Shown here piece by piece: positions 3,001-60,206 of a stretch of 64,000 nt of DNA. The DNA is from Styela clava (Eukaryota), in contig NC_135255.1 of assembly GCF_964204865.1 (NCBI RefSeq), forward strand, positions 11,904,001 to 11,968,000, written 5' to 3'. The first letter of the stretch is position 1. Every line of letters starts with the position of its first letter. A program made the position numbers and the translations under genes. The notes beneath the pieces were generated by a model. That model was not told where the DNA came from. It saw only the letters and a program-made list of their open reading frames with translations, and searched no databases.

Positions 3001-3741
3001 TTAGGGTGTTATTTTGTAACGGCGTTATTGAGCATGGCTGGCACATATTTCTTCATGATAAAGTAACTTTTGTATTCTGTAGGTAACCTATTATTATATA
3101 TAGATCTTCAAATTCAAAAACGAAAACGCCAAAGAAATATAGTAAGAAGCAAGTATTGCTGCAATAACATGTTGAAAATGTCGACATGTAATAAAAGGAT
3201 TAATTAAAAAGAGATTTTGTAATTAACTTCGTCCTAATCCGAAATTTTTAATAAATAAAAATAGTGTTTTTAATAATAATTTAGAATCATTCATTTGAGA
3301 TTTGAATACAATAAATAATGAATTTGCCTTCGACAAAATTTGAAATATTCTTTAGAGGCATAAAGTCGACGTGCCGACGGCGGATACAAATTCGTTTTTT
3401 CAGGCCACATGGAAATATCTTCCATTCTCAAAATCGCTGGCAATAGTCATAGAGCACGAGGTTGTGAACGCGAGGTAATTCAGGAAATGCTGTACCTCAT
3501 AGAATTGTAAATTTAGTTTAGCATACAAATATTTCATTCATCTTGTATGGTAGTATGTAGTACTATTGAATGCAATTGAGTTAAAATTGGTTAAATATGG
3601 CCATACATATTTCTAGTTTTTATTAAAAATTCTTCCACTGACCGTGTGTAATATTTTCTAGACATGCGTACATGTGAACATAATTTCTATTTACTATTTA
3701 GCTCTTGAATAACTTAAATAAAAAGTAAAACACTTTATAAA

Positions 3742-3838
3742 ATGAATTACTCACTTCTTATTCTACTTATTGGATTGGTCTTTCACTGTGGAGAAGCAAG
3801 CAAAAAGAAATCAATAGTTTCGGGTACACCATGGCCAG
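3742..3838 (+). CDS. Serpin exon 1 (signal peptide MNYSLLILLIGLVFHCGEA, then SKKKSIVSGTPWP)
   Basis: ATG in AAAATG context, hydrophobic core ending G-E-A, donor CAG/gtacgg in phase 1. Confidence 0.85.
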
Positions 3839-6800
3839 GTACGGTTTCATAATTTTTTTAAAAAATTTTTTTTTATGTATTCTGCTTTGTGTGATAGGTA
3901 TCGTATACTGCGGTAGTAAATATGGCAAGGTCTGATGTTTTTTATGGCATATCTCTAGCATATTAATCTGTTGAACGTGAGGAAATTTAACAAGAAATAA
4001 ACATAAAGAAGCATCGGAAGTGCAAATTAGAAAGGTCGAAAGATGATATACAAAACTAAAAATAGTGTTCATCGTCATCGTACGTGTTCGGCTTTAATAA
4101 TCCTAAAAATGTTTACACGTTTCTCCTACTAAGAAAATGCGCTGTTGATTCGGATTATCCTATGACAGGACTCAAACGTAACGTGGAAATTCACGTGTTA
4201 CTGATGTTACATTTGAAATATGAAGAAATGCTTTGACGTGTGCTAAGGTTTTTTTTGTCGACTTGGTAATTTTGCAACTATATCAGTGTTAGATATCGCC
4301 GTTTAAAAGGATTTACAGTTAATATGAAAACCCCACATTATTTTGATTGAAAATATTAAGACTTTGAACGCCTTCAAATGAAGGAAAGTACTCAACTATA
4401 ATTTCAGACGTTGGTATGCAGTATATAGACAAAAACTTGAGAAAAACAATCGCTTTTTTGTTGTTACGTGTTCATGAAATTGCCCAAAATCCTGGCAGAA
4501 AAATAAGAAAATTCTCAATGATAGAGATATTTCCGATTTGGAACCAAATTTGTAATTTATAGGGTGAAGTCGACTTGTGTCGAATGCTAATCTAGCTATC
4601 TAGTCCGCCACAGGTCTCGCAGGTGGATCGCATCATCTCGATATCGTCTGTGTATAAGCCAGTCGTTTACGTCTCCTGTTTGTGTTACCTGTGACATAGC
4701 TAAATGACTAATTTCCCTAAAGGTTAAACATTTCCTAAGTTCGCTTACGGTCGTCTGATGTATCCAAATTTAAAATTTCCGTTTGATTTTTTAGGTTTCC
4801 CGTTCAACCGGCCTCCTATGGGATATTTCTCGAAATCCCCTGTGGAACCTGACGAATATTATGAAGACTATGACTTGGTCGAGGAAAACGACCTCGATGA
4901 GGTAAGAGTACGATGATCACTAAAGTACACATTCTGAAATCGAATTTCAGACATGTAAGACTGGGTCACTATGTCACTGAACGAATTCAGGGATGGCTTC
5001 AGTATGAATATTTATTCCAAGTTATACACTGGTATCAAAAAAGTATTTATTTAGATGCGTTTTTTCACTCTTGGAGGCTATTTCAAGTTTGAATTTTCCC
5101 GACTTGTTCATGCTTAAAAGTCTTATATAGGATTTATATATGCATTTCTATCATTCCAAACGTCGGACGATAAGTCATTTTGAGCGTGAATGGACAATTA
5201 TTATGGCACAATGATCAAGGAAGTGAAAAATCATCCCCGTGAAAACAAAAATATCCCGATCTTATTTTGCCTTAATTCTTTTTTTAAATATTCTTAAATT
5301 TTATAATGTACACCTGTAACAGATCACGTTTCGGAAATGTTGTTACGTAGTCCAAAATAAATTGAAATAAGCACTACAAGATGGATTTAAAACTCATATA
5401 AAAGTGACTGATTCAAACATAGAGAAAGTATTTTATACAGGATTTTTATACATCCCTTTATGGGGTGCGCCCTATCGTTTGAGAACCACTGTTCTAGAAT
5501 AAACATACGGTAACTATCGTGCAAAGCGGCCCAAAACGTTGGGGGATCTTTATACACGAACGGAAGGGGAGGGGTACAATTTGGGGCATCGTGTACAACT
5601 CAATTTTCCTCGCAATGGAAAATGATTTTCCGTGTCTATAAACGAGATTTGATTATTTTAAAGCAAAACTAATCGAAAAAATAATTCTATAATATCTTTT
5701 GAAATTTGGATATAAATGTTTCCAAACTTGCCACCTCCAGTTCAACAGATCAAAAAAATAATTGATGAGAAATAATGTGTAAATGTAATCAACATTTTTG
5801 TCTGCTACAGAATGAAGAATCTACCACGAAGCCAGATTACAAGAAATCTAATGCTTTTCATGCCGGAATAGCCAGTGCGATTCACGACTTTACATTCGAC
5901 TTGTACAAGGGGATGGTTCGAAACATAAGCGTGGAAGACAATCTCGTTTTTTCTCCACTCTCTGTCTACACCGCATTGTGCATGTTAACGCTAGGTACGG
6001 CAGTGACATTCATCAATTACACCGTGGTCTATTCTAACTGTTTGTATATTTTTGAGCTAACATAAATTCTCTGCTAACCTCGATATCGCGTGAGTTGGTA
6101 ATCTCGGATTAGGTATTTCTGGTTACAGACGATGGCACGAACGGGAATAAAAATAATTAAAATTTTATAAGGTTCTACCATAGGCTCCTATACTGCATTA
6201 CGTGACCGTGTAATTTTTATCGTCTTTTTCCTGCGTTTGTATCAGGAGCAGATATCGATAGACCAACACCTGAAGCAATTTACATTAACAATATATATTT
6301 TGCCTAAAATGGTATAGGATATCTATACACTGTTCTTAAACTTTCTCGAAATATATTTTATAAGCAAGAATTTTGTTTGTCACCAATTTCCATTTTGAAG
6401 TTTTCGGATTATATCCCTAGCCACACCACAAAGATTTGACGAGAAGAAAATTTACAACAGAACCTAACCAAGATAGATGACAATCCTACACCAAAACGTC
6501 AAATTAAAATTATGAAAACATCATTTGTATATCTCATACAGTAGACTAAACAAATTTTATAAAATTCCCTTTTTGAAAAATATTTTTCAAATTCTTTTCT
6601 GTATTTTTAGGACTCGGAGGCAAGTCACACTCACAAGCAATGGAAGTACTTCACGGGGACGCTTTCCCAGATGTTCACAATGCAATGTCGCAATTATCTG
6701 ATGCAATTTTTGATAATTCAAGATCGGGTAGTGTCACGCTTACCAAAGCAAACAGAATATTTATTGACCGATCTGTGAGACTCCTCAAAGAATTCAAATC

Positions 6801-9800
6801 TAGTATGAGAAAGTAAGTAGCTGTTTTGAAATAACACAATTTTTGAGACATTTCCAAAATATCTATCTGACAGAAGTTTACTAGGTTAATTTCAAATTTG
6901 AAAACTCAATGGCATGCGCTTAAGGGCTCCAATAATCTCACGATCTTTCCTCCAAACATCTAACGCTGATTACTGTTACTTCACCATTAGCAAATACTTA
7001 TCTGAAACACTGAACAAAAAAATTAGAAAAAACCCGTCTATAATTTTTATGTTGAAAAGGGCAATTTCTTTTCATTTCAATTTCTCAGATAAAAATTCCA
7101 GAGTGAAATGAAATTCGTTATTATCTTTTTTCCCAACTGAAAGCTAAATTGACAACTATCAGTCAAGTAATTTCACCGAGTGCAAGCTAACTGTATTACA
7201 TATATGCTAGTTGCCGGGAACAACTTTTCCAAATGATATTATATGTAATCATCAAATGGTGGGGGGAGGTGACCATATTAAATTATTTAGAATAGATTTT
7301 CCGAAACTATTTTAGTGCAGAAACAATGAATAATCACAAATTTGCATTGTTTCCAATCTAAACCAATATGCCTGACATTATTTTCGAAACTCAAAAAAAC
7401 CTATTGAGTTTCATGATTAAAAGTGGATGGAAGTGTTTATATAGTAAATAAATAGTAGGGAAAGTAAAATTAACATAAGGTAATTAGTTTGTGACAAACC
7501 TACGCGAATGATAGACAAAAATTTGCTCGGAGATTAAGTTATAAAAAGAGATTATCGTTAGGTTACAAGTTGTAAATAAGCTTCAAAATAAGTTGAGCTC
7601 CAACTTATCCAATTTTCCAAGATAGGTCGCATATTCTTTCCCAATAGCGTGTTCCAGTTTCGAGAAATATGAAACCAGATTATAGAGATTGTATCTTACT
7701 TATATACAACGAACTCTTTGTCAAGATAAAGTTGTTAAATTATCAAAAAACCACATGATGTTTCTGCAAATTTCAAAGCCTTAACAATAAATACAACGTA
7801 TTTGATAAGCCTAAAATACGCCTACTAAAAACGTGTACCAATCTTCATAAATTGCCGATAGAAAATTCCAAGATTTAGCTCAGAGGAACAAATATATCCG
7901 CAAACTCAAATAGCATCAAATATGTGGTATAAAGTAGACTACATACTAATAAACTTGAAACCGCCCTATTGTAAATATTATTTTACATCAATGCACGCAG
8001 CAGTGATAGTTTGCCCAATGGGAGTTTCATGTTGTTAAAAGATTTTTTCACTCTTTTGTCATAAACTACTACACAAATCGCTTTAAATTTTCAACAGTTA
8101 ATAGATGGAAGTGTTTTTTTAAAAGCTGTCTCTTTGATATTTTTCGAATTTTTCCGGTCTTCTTTGGAGTTTGTAAATTTACCTAACAAGTGGTGTTTTG
8201 ATGAAATAACGATACCAAAGGGAATTTTCGTTTCGTGAGTCCGGGTATAATCAGCATAATTATTAACTACTCAAAAACCTAAATCTCCTTCAAGACAACA
8301 AATCATAAATATAGTAGGTAAAAAAATAGCAGGTATCTCAATTTTGCCCAATTTGATTTTCTTTTTAAAGTTATCATTCGTATTATTATTCACAGGGACT
8401 ACCACGTCAGCGCAAAAAAAGTCAACTTCATGAATGCCCCTGACTTGAACCGAAGAAGAATCAACCAATTCGTACAAAGACATACGGAACGAAAAATCAA
8501 GGACCTTGCACCAAGAGGATCGATTTCATCTGACACAAGATTGTTTATTGCTAACGCTATGTACATGAAGGTGAGTAAAAAAATTCAAAATACGCGCATT
8601 CTTTACTACTGACACTTCGCAATCAATTGCACTTTGTGGGTATGGGTGACTACAACCGTCTAGGGCGCGAATTAATCGGTTCCAGACACTTTTCTTGCAT
8701 TAAAAATGTCAAATGTGTACGAGTGCTGATGATGAGCATAGACAAGCAATAAATACAATCAAAATTGTCATTCATGAATGAAATTATAGTTTATGATAAT
8801 TATAACTATAAAAATGTAACACTTTCATCGCTGACGAAAAAAGATTTTAGAAAAATACTCATTTTAAATCGAAAAATGCTATAAACTGTGAGTAATTTTA
8901 GCCACGAGATAAAATTGGGAAAAAAGCAAGCTTTGAAAAAATCAAAATAACTGTGGAACAATTTCACAATTAGTAAACAATGTTTGTTGTACATGTCATG
9001 AAGTTGTGAACTTCTTTGAAGAAGAAGCGTTTTTCATAAATTGATGGACTAAGTGTTTACATGATGTGGTTTTAAATTCAAATGTTACCAACAGACACCC
9101 ACACAGTAAGAAGTTGAGTCACTTGTTGTTTACCGAGGATTCATTTTGCAAAAAAATTGAAAAAAAAAATGCGATATGTTTTTCTACAACACGATTCAAG
9201 CAAGACAATGCGTTGTTGATTCCAAAGCCAAATAGCTTTTCATTATTCAGCCTTTCTGGCTGTCATTCAAAATAAAGCAATATTAAATCGTGGTTTGGCC
9301 ATTCTAGCTATTACGTCTCGTCACATTGTTGCCAACGGATAAAAAAGATGACATTTAAATATTTTCTGAAAATACATTAAACTTTTTGCGGAAACGGCAG
9401 TGTGTTTATTCGTCTACGAAAAACGATGTTAAAAAACTTGACATAATAATTTTGAGTTGACTTTCCAAATTTCACAGAAAAACGTCTTTCTGGCCCAATT
9501 TCAAACAAATCGCTTGCGTCAAAATATTATCTAGCAAAGGTGTCAAATGAATCATTAGTTTAATTGGAATAAGTGACAGCATACAGACAGATTGATGTAC
9601 CTGCTCAAATATCTAAAAAACGTAAAGATGAATTTAACTGTACAAAATCTGACGCAAAGAGAATGGCAAGAGATATTCCAATCCCCACCCCATCAGCGGA
9701 GATGATTATTAGCGCGCTCTCCACCAAACTTGGTTAATATCTGTGATTTTTCACGAGCATCTTTTACAAAAATGATTAGTCACTTATGGTCTCGAACCCC

Positions 9801-11075
9801 ACATACTAGAGTTTCGACTTTCGATATGAATAACGCCAAATTAATTCAAAACTGTCGCTTTCAAAGAAGTTTACAAATACCAATGAGGGTTAAAGAGTTC
9901 TTGTTTATTATATATATTTGTGTAAATTGTAATACCAGGAGAAATGGTCATTTTTCGACGAGTTAGGATGTCTCGCATATAAGTCCCAGTAATACATCAG
10001 AATGAAAGTTCTGAACATCTAAACTTTGTTTTTTTCTGAATAATTTATTTGCAATGACCTACTTTGCAATATTTGATGCTGATTTCATCCTTTACAGGCT
10101 TCTTGGGAAACACGATTCACGTTTACGGACAAAGGAAGATTTACCGTCAATCCGAGTGAGAAAATCATTGTAGACATGATGCAAAGTTCCAGTGGAAGCT
10201 GTTATACCACACTTAGCAATGAATTGAACGCAGAAGTGATCAGGATTCTTATGAAAGGTGGGCATTGTAACAGATTTACATGAGTTGAGAATATTAGGAA
10301 TTAGCTGATGCCGGGATTTCTTACACTATTTTGAGATCCATTTTTCTATAACCTTGCTTGTGTTATATACTTTAAGCTGTTTATCAGAATCCATCCTTTG
10401 CATGAAATTTAAAATACGGGATTCCCGACATTCCACTGTCTTTTTTACTGTACGAAAATAGATCATCACGCACTGCCGTTGTTTATTTCTTTCGTATATC
10501 TTTAGGAACCTATAGTAGCAAAATCAGGTACCGATAAAATTTTTTGACAAAGCGAAAATTCTTAGTAACAAATTTCTTTTTTTCATTTTTCAGGTGACGT
10601 CAGCTTCATAGCCATCGTGCCTTCCACTCCAGGAGATTTCTCTCTACTAGAAGATGGGAGAGGAAAAGGACGAACACGCCGAGCATTGGAAGCCTTATAC
10701 GAACCCGGGTTTTCAGTGTGGCCACAGTTATGCCGTATTACAATGCCAAAATTCAAGATCGACTTCAAAGCAGACGACTTGATAGACGTTTTGAAAGACA
10801 TGGGAATGACGGATATCTTTGACCCAACGGAGGCAGATCTTAGCAAAATGACACCGAGTAGAGAGCCATTGTACGTGAGCGATGTGCGTCATAAAGCTAC
10901 CATTGACGTCAACGAAAATGGTCTCGAAGCAGCAGCGGCTACAGGAATTGGGGTTGCGGCGCGTATGATGCCACAACCTGTCACGATAGATCGACCATTT
11001 TTATTTATGGTACGAGACGAGAAAACTGGAGCTACAATATTCACCGGAAAAGTCGTTCGGCCAAAATATGAATAA
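3742..11075 (+). CDS. Secreted serpin, 7 coding exons: join(3742..3838,4795..4901,5811..5994,6611..6812,8396..8570,10098..10257,10594..11075), 468 aa
   Basis: All six introns are GT-AG with compatible phases (1,0,1,2,0,1). Spliced length is 1407 nt and open. Serpin motifs: NLVFSPLS, INQFV..HTERKIKDL, NAMYMKASW..F, VDMM, MPKFKI, LYVSDVRH, ENGLEAAAAT hinge, IDRPFLF, IFTGKVVRP. Confidence 0.93.
4795..4901 (+). CDS. Serpin exon 2 (acidic tail GFPFNRPPMGYFSKSPVEPDEYYEDYDLVEENDLDE)
   Basis: Acceptor tttttttag, donor GAG/gtaaga; phases link exon 1 to exon 3. Confidence 0.85.
5811..5994 (+). CDS. Serpin exon 3 (helix A to helix B)
   Basis: FTFDLYK...NLVFSPLSVYTALCMLTLG; ctacag acceptor, G/gtacgg donor. 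Confidence 0.93.
6611..6812 (+). CDS. Serpin exon 4
   Basis: LGGKSHSQAMEVLH...LTKANRIFIDRSVRLLKEFKSSMRK; tttttag acceptor, gtaagt donor. Confidence 0.92.
8396..8570 (+). CDS. Serpin exon 5
   Basis: DYHVSAKKVNF...INQFVQRHTERKIKDL...ANAMYMK; ttcacag acceptor, gtgagt donor. Confidence 0.94.
10098..10257 (+). CDS. Serpin exon 6
   Basis: ASWETRF...IVDMMQ...LNAEVIRILMK; tttacag acceptor, G/gtgggc donor. Confidence 0.9.
10594..11075 (+). CDS. Serpin exon 7 (contains the reactive centre loop and stop codon)
   Basis: ENGLEAAAATGIGVAAR-MMPQPVTIDRPFLF; polypyrimidine tract plus cag acceptor; TAA at 11073-11075. Confidence 0.96.
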
Positions 11076-11660
11076 AAATCGCATTTCGAATCAAAATCGA
11101 AAACTTGACGCGAGAATAGTAGCCGATAAGAAAGAGACACAATGAGTCCTGCTACATTGGAGAGACAAAACACTCAATTTTGGCGGCTATAAAACTGGAC
11201 AGTGCTTGAGACAGCCTTTTTATCATCAATGCATTTTGCTGAGAACATGCTTGCATTTCTATAATTACGATTACAAAAAGTAAAAGCTGGACAGGTATAC
11301 AACACCATAGATATCAAAGCATAGTGTCGTCTTTTGCTATTTTTATATTTTTAACTTATTAATTGTTATATAAATTTTTTAATTAGTTTGAAGGTCTGCT
11401 ACAATTAAGTTATACATTTTATTTGTTTCTTGTTTGGTAAATACCAACTTGACCATCTATATAGGAAACGTTATTGACAAATTAACAGTCCATCGGAGAC
11501 TACGCTGCTAATGGTTTACACTCGATTTTGTAAAGCTTGAATAAAGGCAATGTGAGACGTTTTTCATTTCAGGATATTTTATTGGATCAAAACAGACGTT
11601 TTATGCTTCATTTTATATTTTTGCGTATTTTTCTTTTTATACAAATATTAAATAAAACAT
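11076..11660 (+). terminator. Serpin 3' UTR with candidate poly(A) signals
   Basis: AATAAA at ~11540 and ~11651 in U-rich context; another overlaps the stop codon. Confidence 0.4.
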
Positions 11661-12352
11661 CTTTGTGATAATATTTGTTAAGATAAGTTCGTCACTCGGT
11701 TTAATGAGGTTACAAACTACGTGAGTGTTAAACCGAAAAACATGACACAAAGACTTACAGAATAAGCAGGGTTGACTTGAGCGTTGGGATATGATTTACG
11801 CTTTTCATGGTACCAATTCGTCATATACCCATTACGACTACAATGCCTGCATTTAGTGCGAAAATAGGATATTCGTATGTAGAGGAGAGTCACACGCTTT
11901 CTCACACTTAAGCAACTATGGAAAAACTATCTAGTAATGCAAGAAATATGACAATTCACGCGGTGGTGAAACTGAAATTATGGAATTTGTTCTATTCAAG
12001 AGAACATGTTGGTCTAGTCTAGAGAGAGAGGGCGAACTACTGACCCGCGTGTCATAAAGTAATACCTCACGAGCTTTCAGTGACCAGCGAAGTGACGATT
12101 TCAATAAAAAAACATACTGAAATTTTAATGATAAAAACTGATTATAAAACCTTTCTAACCTTTCTAAGTCAATCGAACAATACGTGAACCACCGGTACTA
12201 TAGCATACCAGTGTGCTGTAACTAGCAACAATGCTGTTACAACGTTTTCGACATAACAAGATACTATATTGGTTTATTTCTCGCAACTTGTCATCTAACA
12301 GTGGTTCCCACTCTGAGGTTCATAAACCAAGGGGATATATCGTAAGATAACT

Positions 12353-57008: not shown

Positions 57009-60000
57009 TTATAGCAAGGATTGTAGTAAAAATGTAAGCTGATCCAGTTCATTGTTGTCCGTTACTTGTGAAAAATGTGGTGCCAACTTGTGGACTTCCA
57101 CTAACGATACATCCTTATTAGAGCTTTCTTCAAACCGGTATGCAATTGCAATTTCAGGAGTCCTTGTTGTGGAATTTTCAGGGGTGTTACTCAACGCAAA
57201 ATGACAAATAGGTTTATTTTCAAACTGTTCCGTTTTGATCGGTCCAGCATGCATAATAGCTAAATCCCATATATGAAGTCTATTAGAAGAATCGAGAACA
57301 AAAAATACTGACGGTCTGGAGGTAGACCATTGTACTTTTACAATTCCTGCACTGTCAGTTGAAAAGGGCCAGCTGACAACTGGAAGACCTCTATCGGATA
57401 AATATAGTCTTATGGAGCCATCATCGTATCCTGCTAAAATCATCGATGCGCCAAAAAGTTGAAACGGGTTGAGGTCGATACTAGTCACTGATGATATTGT
57501 ATCTATCTCATTGAAAAAGGTAACTTTGTTCTTGTTTGCCATACTTGATTCTGAATTTGCTTCATATTGTGTGCAATGAACGATATGTCCGGTATCAGTT
57601 CCAACATAAAAGTTATTTGGATCCAGGACTGAAAATTGTACGCATGTTGTTCGAAAAGGCAAATCCGGAATTAAGGATTTTACCGGAGGATGAATTTTTA
57701 CATTTAAGCTTCTTATTAGCTTGATTTTACCTTGTGGTGCAAGGCCAAGGTCATCACCGGCCTCCCCATCTGGTAATAATTCAACAACAATCCAAATGCA
57801 TAAATTACCAGCTTCTTCTAATGATGCTAGCTGAAAGGCTAATCCAGAATGGCTATTTCGTGATTTCCCTTCTTTAGAATCAAATTGATTTTCTTCAGAG
57901 AATTTAGACTCTGCGCCAACAGACATGATGCTAACAATTGGACTGGAATGACCATCATTAAGATAACCAGTTGTGTAAGTTGCACTTCGTAACACAGTCT
58001 CTCTAGTTTTCTCCAGAGAAACAACCTGATGGTGAATACCAGGTTCACGTAAATCATAAGCAAGAACACATCCATCATCCGTACCAACGAATAGTATATA
58101 TGATTTTGTAGAACCAAAAGAGCAGTATGTTGGACAAGCATCACAAACAAGTATTTTTTCTGGAATACCAGGCTTTCTGGTGTCCCATACAGAAACAAGA
58201 CCTTTGCGATCTATTCTTGTTGAAAAACTGGTTGATGCAGGCTCAAATGCTACTGCTACAAAATTATCAGATGAACCAGAACTAGATGCTATATGAACAA
58301 CTTTTCGCCCTTGCAAATATGCTAAGTTTGTTTGTAGAGGTACACAGCTTTCACAAAATGATAAAGCACTTGATTGATTCTTCCTGGCACCAGTATTCTC
58401 CCATGTTTCATCTTCTATCAAAATTGATTTAATGAGTTTACAAGAACGGCTCATAAATTTGATAAGACGCTTGGAATTACCCCTCATTGTAGATAACATC
58501 CTAGCTCTATCTTCATTCTCCGACTGAGTTTCTGAAAATTTGGACATGATTCCACCAGAACATTTTATTTCATGAGGTGGATGTTGACTCCATTTTTCAT
58601 CCATATCAGGACTTTCTGTTTGGATTTCCTGTTCCAGATTGTCATCATTGCACTGTACAGATGCCTGCACTGTATTAGAATTGCCATAATTTTTGATGTA
58701 TAAATTATATTCAGTAACAGGGGGCATGTCGAGAATATCAAAGGAAACAGAGTCAAGTTGAATCAAACTCATCAAATCTTTGCTTCTTTTAATAACTCGT
58801 CTCTTCGTTTTACTACTCGCAGATGACTTTTTAGCAGCAGAAAAATTTATCATTGTTGAGGATGTATTCCTGATGCCAGATGATGCAGATCCTTCTCTGT
58901 GACTTCCCGCATCGTTAGAACTTGAAAAAGGGGAATCGTTGCGATCTGAATTAGCAGTACTTCGAAATTGTCCAGAAGATTGAGCTGAATTTGCTCTTTC
59001 ATTCTCAGCAGCGATAGCACGCATTAACTCATCCATCTTGTCTGGTTGTTTATGCGAAATTGGACGAGTGTCTTCATTATTATCATCGTCATCTTCAAAA
59101 TCATCATCATAATCTTCAAACTCTTCATCTTCATAATTATATTCATTATTGTTATCATTTTTCAATCTATCCTTTTCATCATCAATCACATAGGTTGAAT
59201 TCATACTCTTTTGTTCGTCATTTTTACTTCCTTTGTTACTCTTACCATCTTTATGATGTCGATCATTATCACTCCTGTGATGTCGTGACTGACGATATGA
59301 TCCTGAGTCGTCATCATCTCGATTCTTTCTCGAGTGCTTCTCAGGTTTACTATGTTTGTCATTCCGAGATTCTCTTTCTTTGTCTCGATCCCTACTTTTA
59401 TGAATATCGTACTCTGATTCTTTTTCCCGGCGGCTTTTTTCTTTCCGCAATCGACGATCTTCATCTTCATCATTTTCCCTTCTTCTTTGGCCTCGTTTTT
59501 CTTTTCTCAAATTTTCTACATCTTCATCATGCGTTCGACGATCTTTTTCTTGACGACGGTGGCTTTTTTCATCCCGATTCTGCTTCTTATCATAGTCTTC
59601 ATCTCTATCATAATTATCACTTTCATGTTTTTTTCGTCTTTTATCATCATCTTCTCTTCTTCTTTCCCTTTTTTCCTTATAATATTCTTCATCTCGATTC
59701 CTATGTTTTCTCTCTCGATCATCTCTCGAAGTTTTTTCAGATCGGTGAGATCTTTCTCTTTCATCTCTTGATGGTTTTTCCGAACGATGCGATCTCTCTC
59801 GGTCATCTCTTGACGATTTTTCTGATCTATGAGATCTTTCCGAGACTCGACGAGACTCGTCACCATTTGTTTTATAATACTTCTCTTTGTCATTTTCTGT
59901 TCTATGTCGATCTTCCCGATGCTCGCGATCATCATCACGTTTGGAGCGATGTTCTCGTTTCCGATCGTCAGAATCTTTCACTCGGCCAGAAGATTCTCGA

Positions 60001-60206
60001 GGACGATCTGACCTTGACTTTTTGTGTGATTCATCTCTCTCATCTCTTCGTTTTCTTTCTTTTTTAATGTAATAATCTTCACCATCATCTTCATCCTTGT
60101 GACGACTTGATTTATGAGACGACTTTTCTGATTTTCTCAAAGAACTAGTCAGTTCTTCTTTAGTCCAAGTTTCATTGTAGCGATCTTTCTTCCTTCTCTC
60201 AGACAT
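57009..60206 (-). CDS. DYNC2I1: Cytoplasmic dynein-2 intermediate chain 1 (WDR60), single coding exon
   Basis: 1065-aa ORF: charged R/D/E/K N-terminus, YEDEEFEDYDDDFEDD, LIQLDSVSFDILDMPPVTEYNLYIKNYG, light-chain-binding QASVQCNDD...EIQTE, and a C-terminal WD40 propeller (YDLREP, LRSATYTT, DLGLAPQGKIKL, WSTSRPSVFFVLD). All are characteristic of WDR60. Confidence 0.95.
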   Translation of the reverse strand: MSERRKKDRYNETWTKEELTSSLRKSEKSSHKSSRHKDEDDGEDYYIKKERKRRDERDESHKKSRSDRPRESSGRVKDSDDRKREHRSKRDDDREHREDRHRTENDKEKYYKTNGDESRRVSERSHRSEKSSRDDRERSHRSEKPSRDERERSHRSEKTSRDDRERKHRNRDEEYYKEKRERRREDDDKRRKKHESDNYDRDEDYDKKQNRDEKSHRRQEKDRRTHDEDVENLRKEKRGQRRRENDEDEDRRLRKEKSRREKESEYDIHKSRDRDKERESRNDKHSKPEKHSRKNRDDDDSGSYRQSRHHRSDNDRHHKDGKSNKGSKNDEQKSMNSTYVIDDEKDRLKNDNNNEYNYEDEEFEDYDDDFEDDDDNNEDTRPISHKQPDKMDELMRAIAAENERANSAQSSGQFRSTANSDRNDSPFSSSNDAGSHREGSASSGIRNTSSTMINFSAAKKSSASSKTKRRVIKRSKDLMSLIQLDSVSFDILDMPPVTEYNLYIKNYGNSNTVQASVQCNDDNLEQEIQTESPDMDEKWSQHPPHEIKCSGGIMSKFSETQSENEDRARMLSTMRGNSKRLIKFMSRSCKLIKSILIEDETWENTGARKNQSSALSFCESCVPLQTNLAYLQGRKVVHIASSSGSSDNFVAVAFEPASTSFSTRIDRKGLVSVWDTRKPGIPEKILVCDACPTYCSFGSTKSYILFVGTDDGCVLAYDLREPGIHHQVVSLEKTRETVLRSATYTTGYLNDGHSSPIVSIMSVGAESKFSEENQFDSKEGKSRNSHSGLAFQLASLEEAGNLCIWIVVELLPDGEAGDDLGLAPQGKIKLIRSLNVKIHPPVKSLIPDLPFRTTCVQFSVLDPNNFYVGTDTGHIVHCTQYEANSESSMANKNKVTFFNEIDTISSVTSIDLNPFQLFGASMILAGYDDGSIRLYLSDRGLPVVSWPFSTDSAGIVKVQWSTSRPSVFFVLDSSNRLHIWDLAIMHAGPIKTEQFENKPICHFALSNTPENSTTRTPEIAIAYRFEESSNKDVSLVEVHKLAPHFSQVTDNNELDQLTFLLQSLL
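59715..59840 (-). repeat. 3 x 42-bp coding tandem repeat (ERSHRSEKxSRD[DE]R)
   Basis: Direct translation within WDR60. Confidence 0.85.

Follow-up and report, generated by a model that had tools for sequence, protein, structure and literature searches.

A group U1 serpin of the ascidian Styela clava with an acidic, tyrosine-rich N-terminal tail that most likely resembles heparin cofactor II by convergence

A serpin gene in a 64,000 nt stretch of the Styela clava genome (contig NC_135255.1, positions 11,904,001–11,968,000; hereafter the window, to which all coordinates refer) encodes an acidic, tyrosine-rich segment between its signal peptide and the serpin body. In heparin cofactor II (HCII; SERPIND1, group V2), too, the serpin body is preceded by an acidic extension that bears Tyr, and the locus raises the question of what such a tail does on an ascidian serpin and whether the likeness reflects common descent. 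An earlier note on the sequence proposed a glycosaminoglycan-switched, exosite-targeting inhibitor of a trypsin-like protease, either convergent with HCII or ancestral. The reading preferred here, though held tentatively, is of a group U1 serpin that likely inhibits a trypsin-like protease and whose likely sulfated tail likely grips a basic exosite.

The gene lies on the plus strand and has seven exons with GT-AG introns throughout. Its 468 codons contain no stop, and the predicted product is identical, with no differences, to S. clava RefSeq XP_039254966.2, labelled there 'leukocyte elastase inhibitor-like' and nothing more. The coding part of exon 1 (nt 3742–3838) specifies a hydrophobic signal peptide (about aa 1–19, judged by eye) and then a basic mature N-terminus, and contigs extend the transcript upstream to at least nt 3695. 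Exon 2 (nt 4795–4901, phase 1 to 0) is flanked by AG and GT and encodes aa 33–68, including EPDEYYEDYDLVEENDLDE; a Pro/aromatic stretch is followed by the acidic Tyr-rich tail. The end of the acidic tract, a linker and helices A–B are specified by exon 3 (nt 5811–5994, aa 69–130). Exon 4 (nt 6611–6812, aa 130–197) covers helix C, a non-basic helix D (nt 6673–6708), s2A and a basic helix E, and exon 5 (nt 8396–8570, aa 197–255) covers s1A, a basic helix F (nt 8439–8483) with the loop that follows, and s3A. Exon 6 (nt 10098–10257, aa 256–309) includes Cys290, conserved in the family, and the coding part of exon 7 (nt 10594–11075, aa 309–468) carries a basic helix G/H stretch (nt 10656–10682), Cys355, the hinge, the reactive loop and the stop codon. 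The 3' UTR runs to about nt 11550.

Contigs were drawn from four runs of three studies, taken to be RNA by guess, the six GT-AG joints serving as proof of splicing. All six introns are joined, exon 1 to exon 2 in three of the four runs and exon 2 to exon 3 in all four, and no joint of exon 1 to exon 3 occurs among the joints listed (contigs show presence, not absence). Skipping of exon 2 would lead to a stop at codon 34, as computed from the frame, so that exon 2 is no cassette. The segment at nt 4795–4901 is a genuine spliced-in exon, and the tail that the earlier note had placed between signal peptide and body has passed the transcript check proposed there. The suggestion that the tail has an exon to itself needs amending: the exon is real, but about half of it is the Pro/aromatic stretch, and the acidic tract (aa 50–71; 13 acidic and no basic residues) extends into exon 3. 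Two further features were observed in this part of the gene. Codon 107 (exon 3) shows an Ile/Lys polymorphism at the middle of the sole N-glycosylation sequon of the mature protein, with the sequon kept, and a short repeat in intron 2 (nt 5454–5498) pulls in contigs from other loci, giving loose ends in all four runs.

Each of the five body exons matches PF00079, and the fold matches listed are all serpins. The reactive centre loop (P17–P4', nt 10914–10976) has Arg432 at P1 (nt 10962–10964) and Met433 at P1'. Arg432 aligns without gaps with residue 358 of antitrypsin, the numbering having been transferred via sequence P0176, which is gapless against 1hp7, and the P1 Arg proposed earlier is thereby confirmed. 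The hinge (P15–P9) reads G-L-E-A-A-A-A, with Leu at P14, which is less usual than Thr. Judged from these residues, the hinge and P1 Arg look inhibitory. Separately, the pair Cys290 and Cys355 is kept across the U1-clade rows that cover both positions and is missing in the antitrypsin row; it is probably a family-specific disulfide.

The introns within the serpin scaffold fall at 67a (3' end of exon 3), 136b (end of exon 4), 191c (end of exon 5) and 246a (end of exon 6), that is, at four of four positions of urochordate group U1, and 274a is absent. The published U1 set includes 274a, which is lacking in one Ciona member (PMC4150122, Kumar and Bhandari); the text and the legend to Fig 1 of that paper conflict over which Ciona gene this is. 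Tree reconstruction placed the protein in a 12-row clade (support 100/99) with Ciona Spn-1, Spn-2 and two Clavelina proteins, and a second tree of 53 rows recovered the U1 clustering with an SH-aLRT of 100; both trees were built from sequences other than HCII. That the protein is an orthologue or direct forerunner of HCII, inhibiting a thrombin-like enzyme, has in its favour the acidic Tyr-bearing extension itself and a Botryllus EST designated thrombin on a match at E=3e-4 (PMC2527998, partial text). The available part of PMC2746811 gives as HCII hallmarks an Arg/Lys-rich helix D, the acidic extension and the V2 introns 192a, 282b and 331c, and a reference title in the accessible part of PMC13682084 gives Leu444 as P1. 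Of these the Styela protein has only the extension: all three introns are absent, helix D is acidic and not Arg/Lys-rich, and P1 is Arg. In a comparison with PDB sequences, HCII also ranked below the nearest entries, scoring 140 bits where serpin B3 scored 175. No thrombin light-chain match was found in the Styela genome, and the available portion of PMC3299649 reports that Ciona lacks the principal clotting factors, so that thrombin is an unlikely target. Orthology to HCII is extremely improbable, being largely ruled out by gene structure, and the shared ancestry offered as one option in the earlier note is not borne out; the likeness is most likely convergent.

Within U1, the position of the gene is less sharply defined. 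Both Ciona paralogues find this locus as their best match in the Styela genome and no second serpin was matched beside it; it is therefore probably the sole U1 gene of this genome. A single lineage of tail-bearing members is acceptable to the tree (p-AU 0.42), as is the other topology. Orthology to Spn-1 or to Spn-2 gave p-AU values of 0.42 and 0.25, and the best tree dates the duplication after the split from Styela (78/75). Synteny across ascidian orders is often lost. The published U1 microsynteny markers are bZIP, pleckstrin-like, lactase and SEC23 genes (PMC4150122); Sec23 and bZIP_2 had no match on this contig, and a lactase-family cluster lies on it, 2.6 Mb away. A profile search for further tunicate U1 members returned none that were new. 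The U1 clade also holds five environmental transcripts (P0247, P0252, P0264, P0265 and P0321), probably from other tunicates, and the four with an intact N-terminus show no acidic tail. Ci-Spn-2 (P0251) was deposited as 'Not2 protein precursor'. Not2 is probably the Brachyury-downstream notochord gene Noto2, in which case the tail-less U1 paralogue would be a notochord serpin; Noto2 is not called a serpin in the parts available of PMC3034685, PMC4684326 and PMC8803312.

The tail centres on a nine-residue core, DEYYEDYDL (nt 4851–4877, aa 52–60), with Tyr54, Tyr55 and Tyr58 as a predicted sulfation cluster. In an AlphaFold2 model, aa 1–74 have pLDDT values below 50 and are predicted to be disordered, and the remainder folds as a serpin. 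A Tyr in an N-terminal extension with at least four acidic and at most one basic neighbour was found in 2 of 311 serpins, both of this ascidian family, a weak control because most of the background sequences come from prokaryotes or metagenomes. Under a stricter Y-x-x-Y criterion (at least four acidic flanking residues), the Styela protein was the one sequence of 423 to qualify and the Clavelina tail escaped detection, and a search of the tail against PDB sequences gave a single match at E=1.9, i.e. chance.

Conservation of the tail, another check put forward at the outset, was found at two levels. In P0123, a protein predicted from a transcript of a close relative and 82% identical, the core is unchanged at 9/9 positions, against 19/32 elsewhere in the extension (Fisher p=0.038, for a segment picked after looking); the core is not above the serpin body (193/228, p=0.36), and the extension outside it is less conserved than the body (p=0.002). 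Among other ascidians, Fig S1 of PMC4150122, which was available in part, shows an acidic Tyr-bearing extension in 2 of 16 Ciona rows, both of the U1 Spn-1 type: FDYGEYEDD in Ci-Spn-1 and FDYGDY in Cs-Spn-4. The figure is the source for the Ciona tail, as the NCBI model of the Ciona Spn-1-like protein (P0263) begins downstream of it. In Clavelina, CAK8692768 has an acidic Tyr tail (LDYE, YDSY), and none is present in CAK8692767, next in numbering, or in Ciona Not2/Spn-2. Since tail-less U1 paralogues exist, the tail is dispensable for the U1 family. Each of the four tail types contains Asp-Tyr together with two Tyr spaced i, i+3. Residue-by-residue alignment across ascidian orders fails, composition and Tyr spacing being what the tails have in common, and they may therefore be independent, or merely acidic. 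A weakly constrained spacer that offsets the basic body for solubility or secretion, with no specific partner, would fit the disorder, the paralogues lacking a tail and the low conservation outside the core; the invariance of the Tyr core in the relative and the recurrence of the Asp-Tyr and i, i+3 motifs in Ciona and Clavelina speak against it, and we consider it very unlikely.

The alternative preferred here is that the Tyr cluster is sulfated and serves as an exosite ligand. The Styela genome has TPST-like frames, classed as such by an N-terminal motif. As to the wider family, Sulfotransfer_3 gave 27 matches in the genome, including G000:C2:20150000-20226000, C16 at 7.32 and 8.88 Mb and C4 at 4.62 Mb; three of these loci, when translated, showed the TPST-like N-terminal motif, which suggests an expanded TPST-like family (most animals have two). 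According to the available sections of PMC9372746, TPSTs prefer Asp before Tyr and acidic surroundings, and bystander sulfation is known. The same sections define a hirudin-like motif of eight residues with an aromatic-acidic pair at positions 2–3, the others being acidic or hydrophobic, and Y54-Y55-E56-D57-Y58-D59-L60-V61 conforms to this definition, which is loose and easily satisfied. They also report that sulfotyrosine-cluster motifs bind exosite 2 of thrombin and an exosite of C1s, and that exosite-1 ligands seldom carry sulfotyrosine. The Styela tail would therefore stand nearer to the class of C4, gigastasin and madanin than to the use HCII makes of its tail, and the docking on a thrombin exosite I that the earlier note had taken as its model fits the Y54/Y55/Y58 cluster less well than the exosite-2/C1s–C4 type.

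Under the favoured exosite-ligand reading, the serpin would be secreted, to judge by the signal peptide, and the Ala-rich hinge and P1 Arg suggest that it would inhibit a trypsin-like protease through Arg432. The tail would be sulfated in the Golgi, as Asp-Tyr in an acidic, disordered segment and the TPST-like genes suggest, and by analogy with C4/C1s, madanin and HCII it would then bind a basic exosite on the target. With Arg at P1, the exosite is presumably less needed than in HCII. Its target would be sought among ascidian proteases, with MASP-like or kringle-type enzymes as candidates only: MASPs are widespread in ascidians (PMC5465252, partial text), a kringle-trypsin protein is present in Ciona (accessible part of PMC6337849), and C1s, as noted, binds a sulfotyrosine cluster through an exosite.

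Charge on the serpin body bears on whether a polyanion could act as a switch. Two basic stretches were reported in the earlier note as lying around helices G/H. Both exist, and GRGKGRTRR does fall at the G/H junction and in helix H of the model; the other has to be moved, as LNRRRINQ is helix F (model helix 212–226, and likewise by alignment to conserpin) and RHTERKIK falls in the stretch of helix F and the following loop. The comparison set comprised 311 of 398 retrieved proteins (length 330–560, eight near-duplicates removed), mostly prokaryotic or metagenomic and with no HCII among them. Against it, the helix E–F segment has a net charge of +10, matched by 2 of 302 other serpins, and helix H has +4, matched by 1 of 294, in agreement with the basic helix H that had been likened to that of protein C inhibitor (PCI). 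Helix D, which the earlier note had overlooked, carries −3 to −4 (289 of 299 others are as high or higher; model helix 151–162, with no basic residue), which argues against an HCII-type switch through that helix. A glycosaminoglycan switch is possible on these charges, though not at HCII's site.

In one form of such a switch, which would add to the preferred explanation, the tail would fold onto a basic surface of the same molecule, formed by helix E, s1A and helix F, from which ascidian heparin or dermatan sulfate would dislodge it and so make it available to the protease. The charges at helices E–F and H would suit this, and so would the pattern within U1, where tail-bearing members are the most basic at helices E–F (+10, +16, +16 against +7, +7, +5, +2, +1 and −2 in tail-less ones; p=0.013, n=9 related rows). 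The heparin site of PCI lies near helix H (PMC7356578, excerpt), and Styela plicata makes both heparin and dermatan sulfate (PMC2527998). Weighing on the other side are the acidic helix D, the usual heparin site and that of HCII, the fairly basic tail-less Spn-2 types (+7), a helix H charge of just +1 in the Ciona Spn-1-like protein, the disorder of the tail in the single-chain model and the mostly prokaryotic charge background. On balance, displacement by a polyanion is unlikely. The fuller scheme is quite unlikely. In it, ascidians would have arrived independently at an HCII-like device: the sulfated tail would rest on basic helices E/F, not on helix D, until endogenous heparin or dermatan sulfate released it to grip an exosite on a protease of the MASP-like or kringle type.

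Another reading gives the tail a function in localisation or stability instead of protease binding: it would tether the protein to collagen or to basic proteins of the matrix or tunic, or act as a built-in cofactor at the flexible joint of helix E, s1A and helix F, as vitronectin does for PAI-1. Sulfotyrosines in N-terminal acidic arrays bind collagen and heparin-binding proteins (PMC9372746), the vitronectin site on PAI-1 is formed by helix E, helix F and s1A (PMC7782431, partial text), the end of the reactive loop resembles that of PAI-1, and the Ciona paralogue labelled Not2 is, as said, probably Noto2. This function is nonetheless unlikely, as PAI-1 and vitronectin are first seen in cartilaginous fish (PMC6337849) and the compact three-Tyr cluster is closer to exosite ligands than to long arrays.

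Elsewhere in the window, nt 57009–60206 on the minus strand form an uninterrupted frame of 1065 aa with a charged, Arg/Asp/Glu/Lys-rich N-terminal half and a WD40-like C-terminal half (weak beta-propeller Pfam matches). It is intronless, which is unusual at that gene size, and we take it to resemble WDR60/DYNC2I1. When selected frames of the neighbourhood were scanned against Pfam, there was no match in 106, one weak match in 74 and the WD40 gene alone among 12, none of them informative for the serpin. Between nt 11700 and 57000 no Pfam match was obtained in the frames tested, and this region apparently holds few genes or is composed of short exons.

The Styela gene was already annotated and the U1 group already described, and the tail is visible in the published alignment of PMC4150122 yet passed over in its text; no study of this serpin tail was found in the open-access papers searched. 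Ascidian heparin and dermatan sulfates have been studied against mammalian serpins, yet ascidians reportedly lack the principal clotting factors; for a regulatory role of these glycans in the animal itself, the U1 family offers a concrete candidate partner. Tail-bearing Spn-1 and tail-less Spn-2 provide a natural control in the tractable Ciona. If the tail does bind an exosite, serpins with an acidic tail would have arisen a second time, independently; otherwise the protein is an ordinary U1 member. Should the HCII-like device be real, the serpin fold would have a heparin site not known before and the anticoagulant glycans an endogenous job, and the protein would become a candidate for the C1-inhibitor-like regulator still missing from ascidian complement.

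Among known systems, the closest are the Ciona U1 proteins. Ci-Spn-1/Cs-Spn-4 and Ci-Spn-2 (Not2)/Cs-Spn-3 share with the Styela protein the four introns, P1 Arg, the Cys pair and a single clade, and the Spn-1 type also shares the acidic Tyr extension and the basic helix E–F surface; the Styela locus differs in having one gene instead of a tandem pair, no 274a, Met instead of Ser at P1', and flanking markers that were not found nearby. Compared with HCII, which resembles it in the extension and differs in helix D, introns and P1 as described, the tail itself is also built differently, with one three-Tyr cluster against two acidic repeats. PAI-1 (SERPINE1) is alike in the loop, P4–P1' being VAAR-M in Styela and VSAR-M in both the close relative and PAI-1, and in basic residues at the flexible joint, but is not known to have such a tail, and its V3 introns (167a, 230a, 290b, 323a, 352a, 380a) are absent from the Styela gene. 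PCI (SERPINA5) and kallistatin share the basic helix H region, PCI also having P1 Arg; both are V2-group genes with no known acidic tail, and not every tail-bearing U1 member has the helix H charge. Among serpins that bind heparin, the site is in most cases helix D, whereas in PCI and kallistatin it is the helix H area (PMC7356578). For the tail itself, the nearest parallels are complement C4, gigastasin, madanin and GPIb-alpha, which likewise place two to three Tyr within six residues of an acidic, flexible segment with an aromatic-acidic pair, the i, i+3 spacing being that of madanin sTyr32/35; in Styela the motif is fused to a serpin, and its sulfation and partner are predicted.
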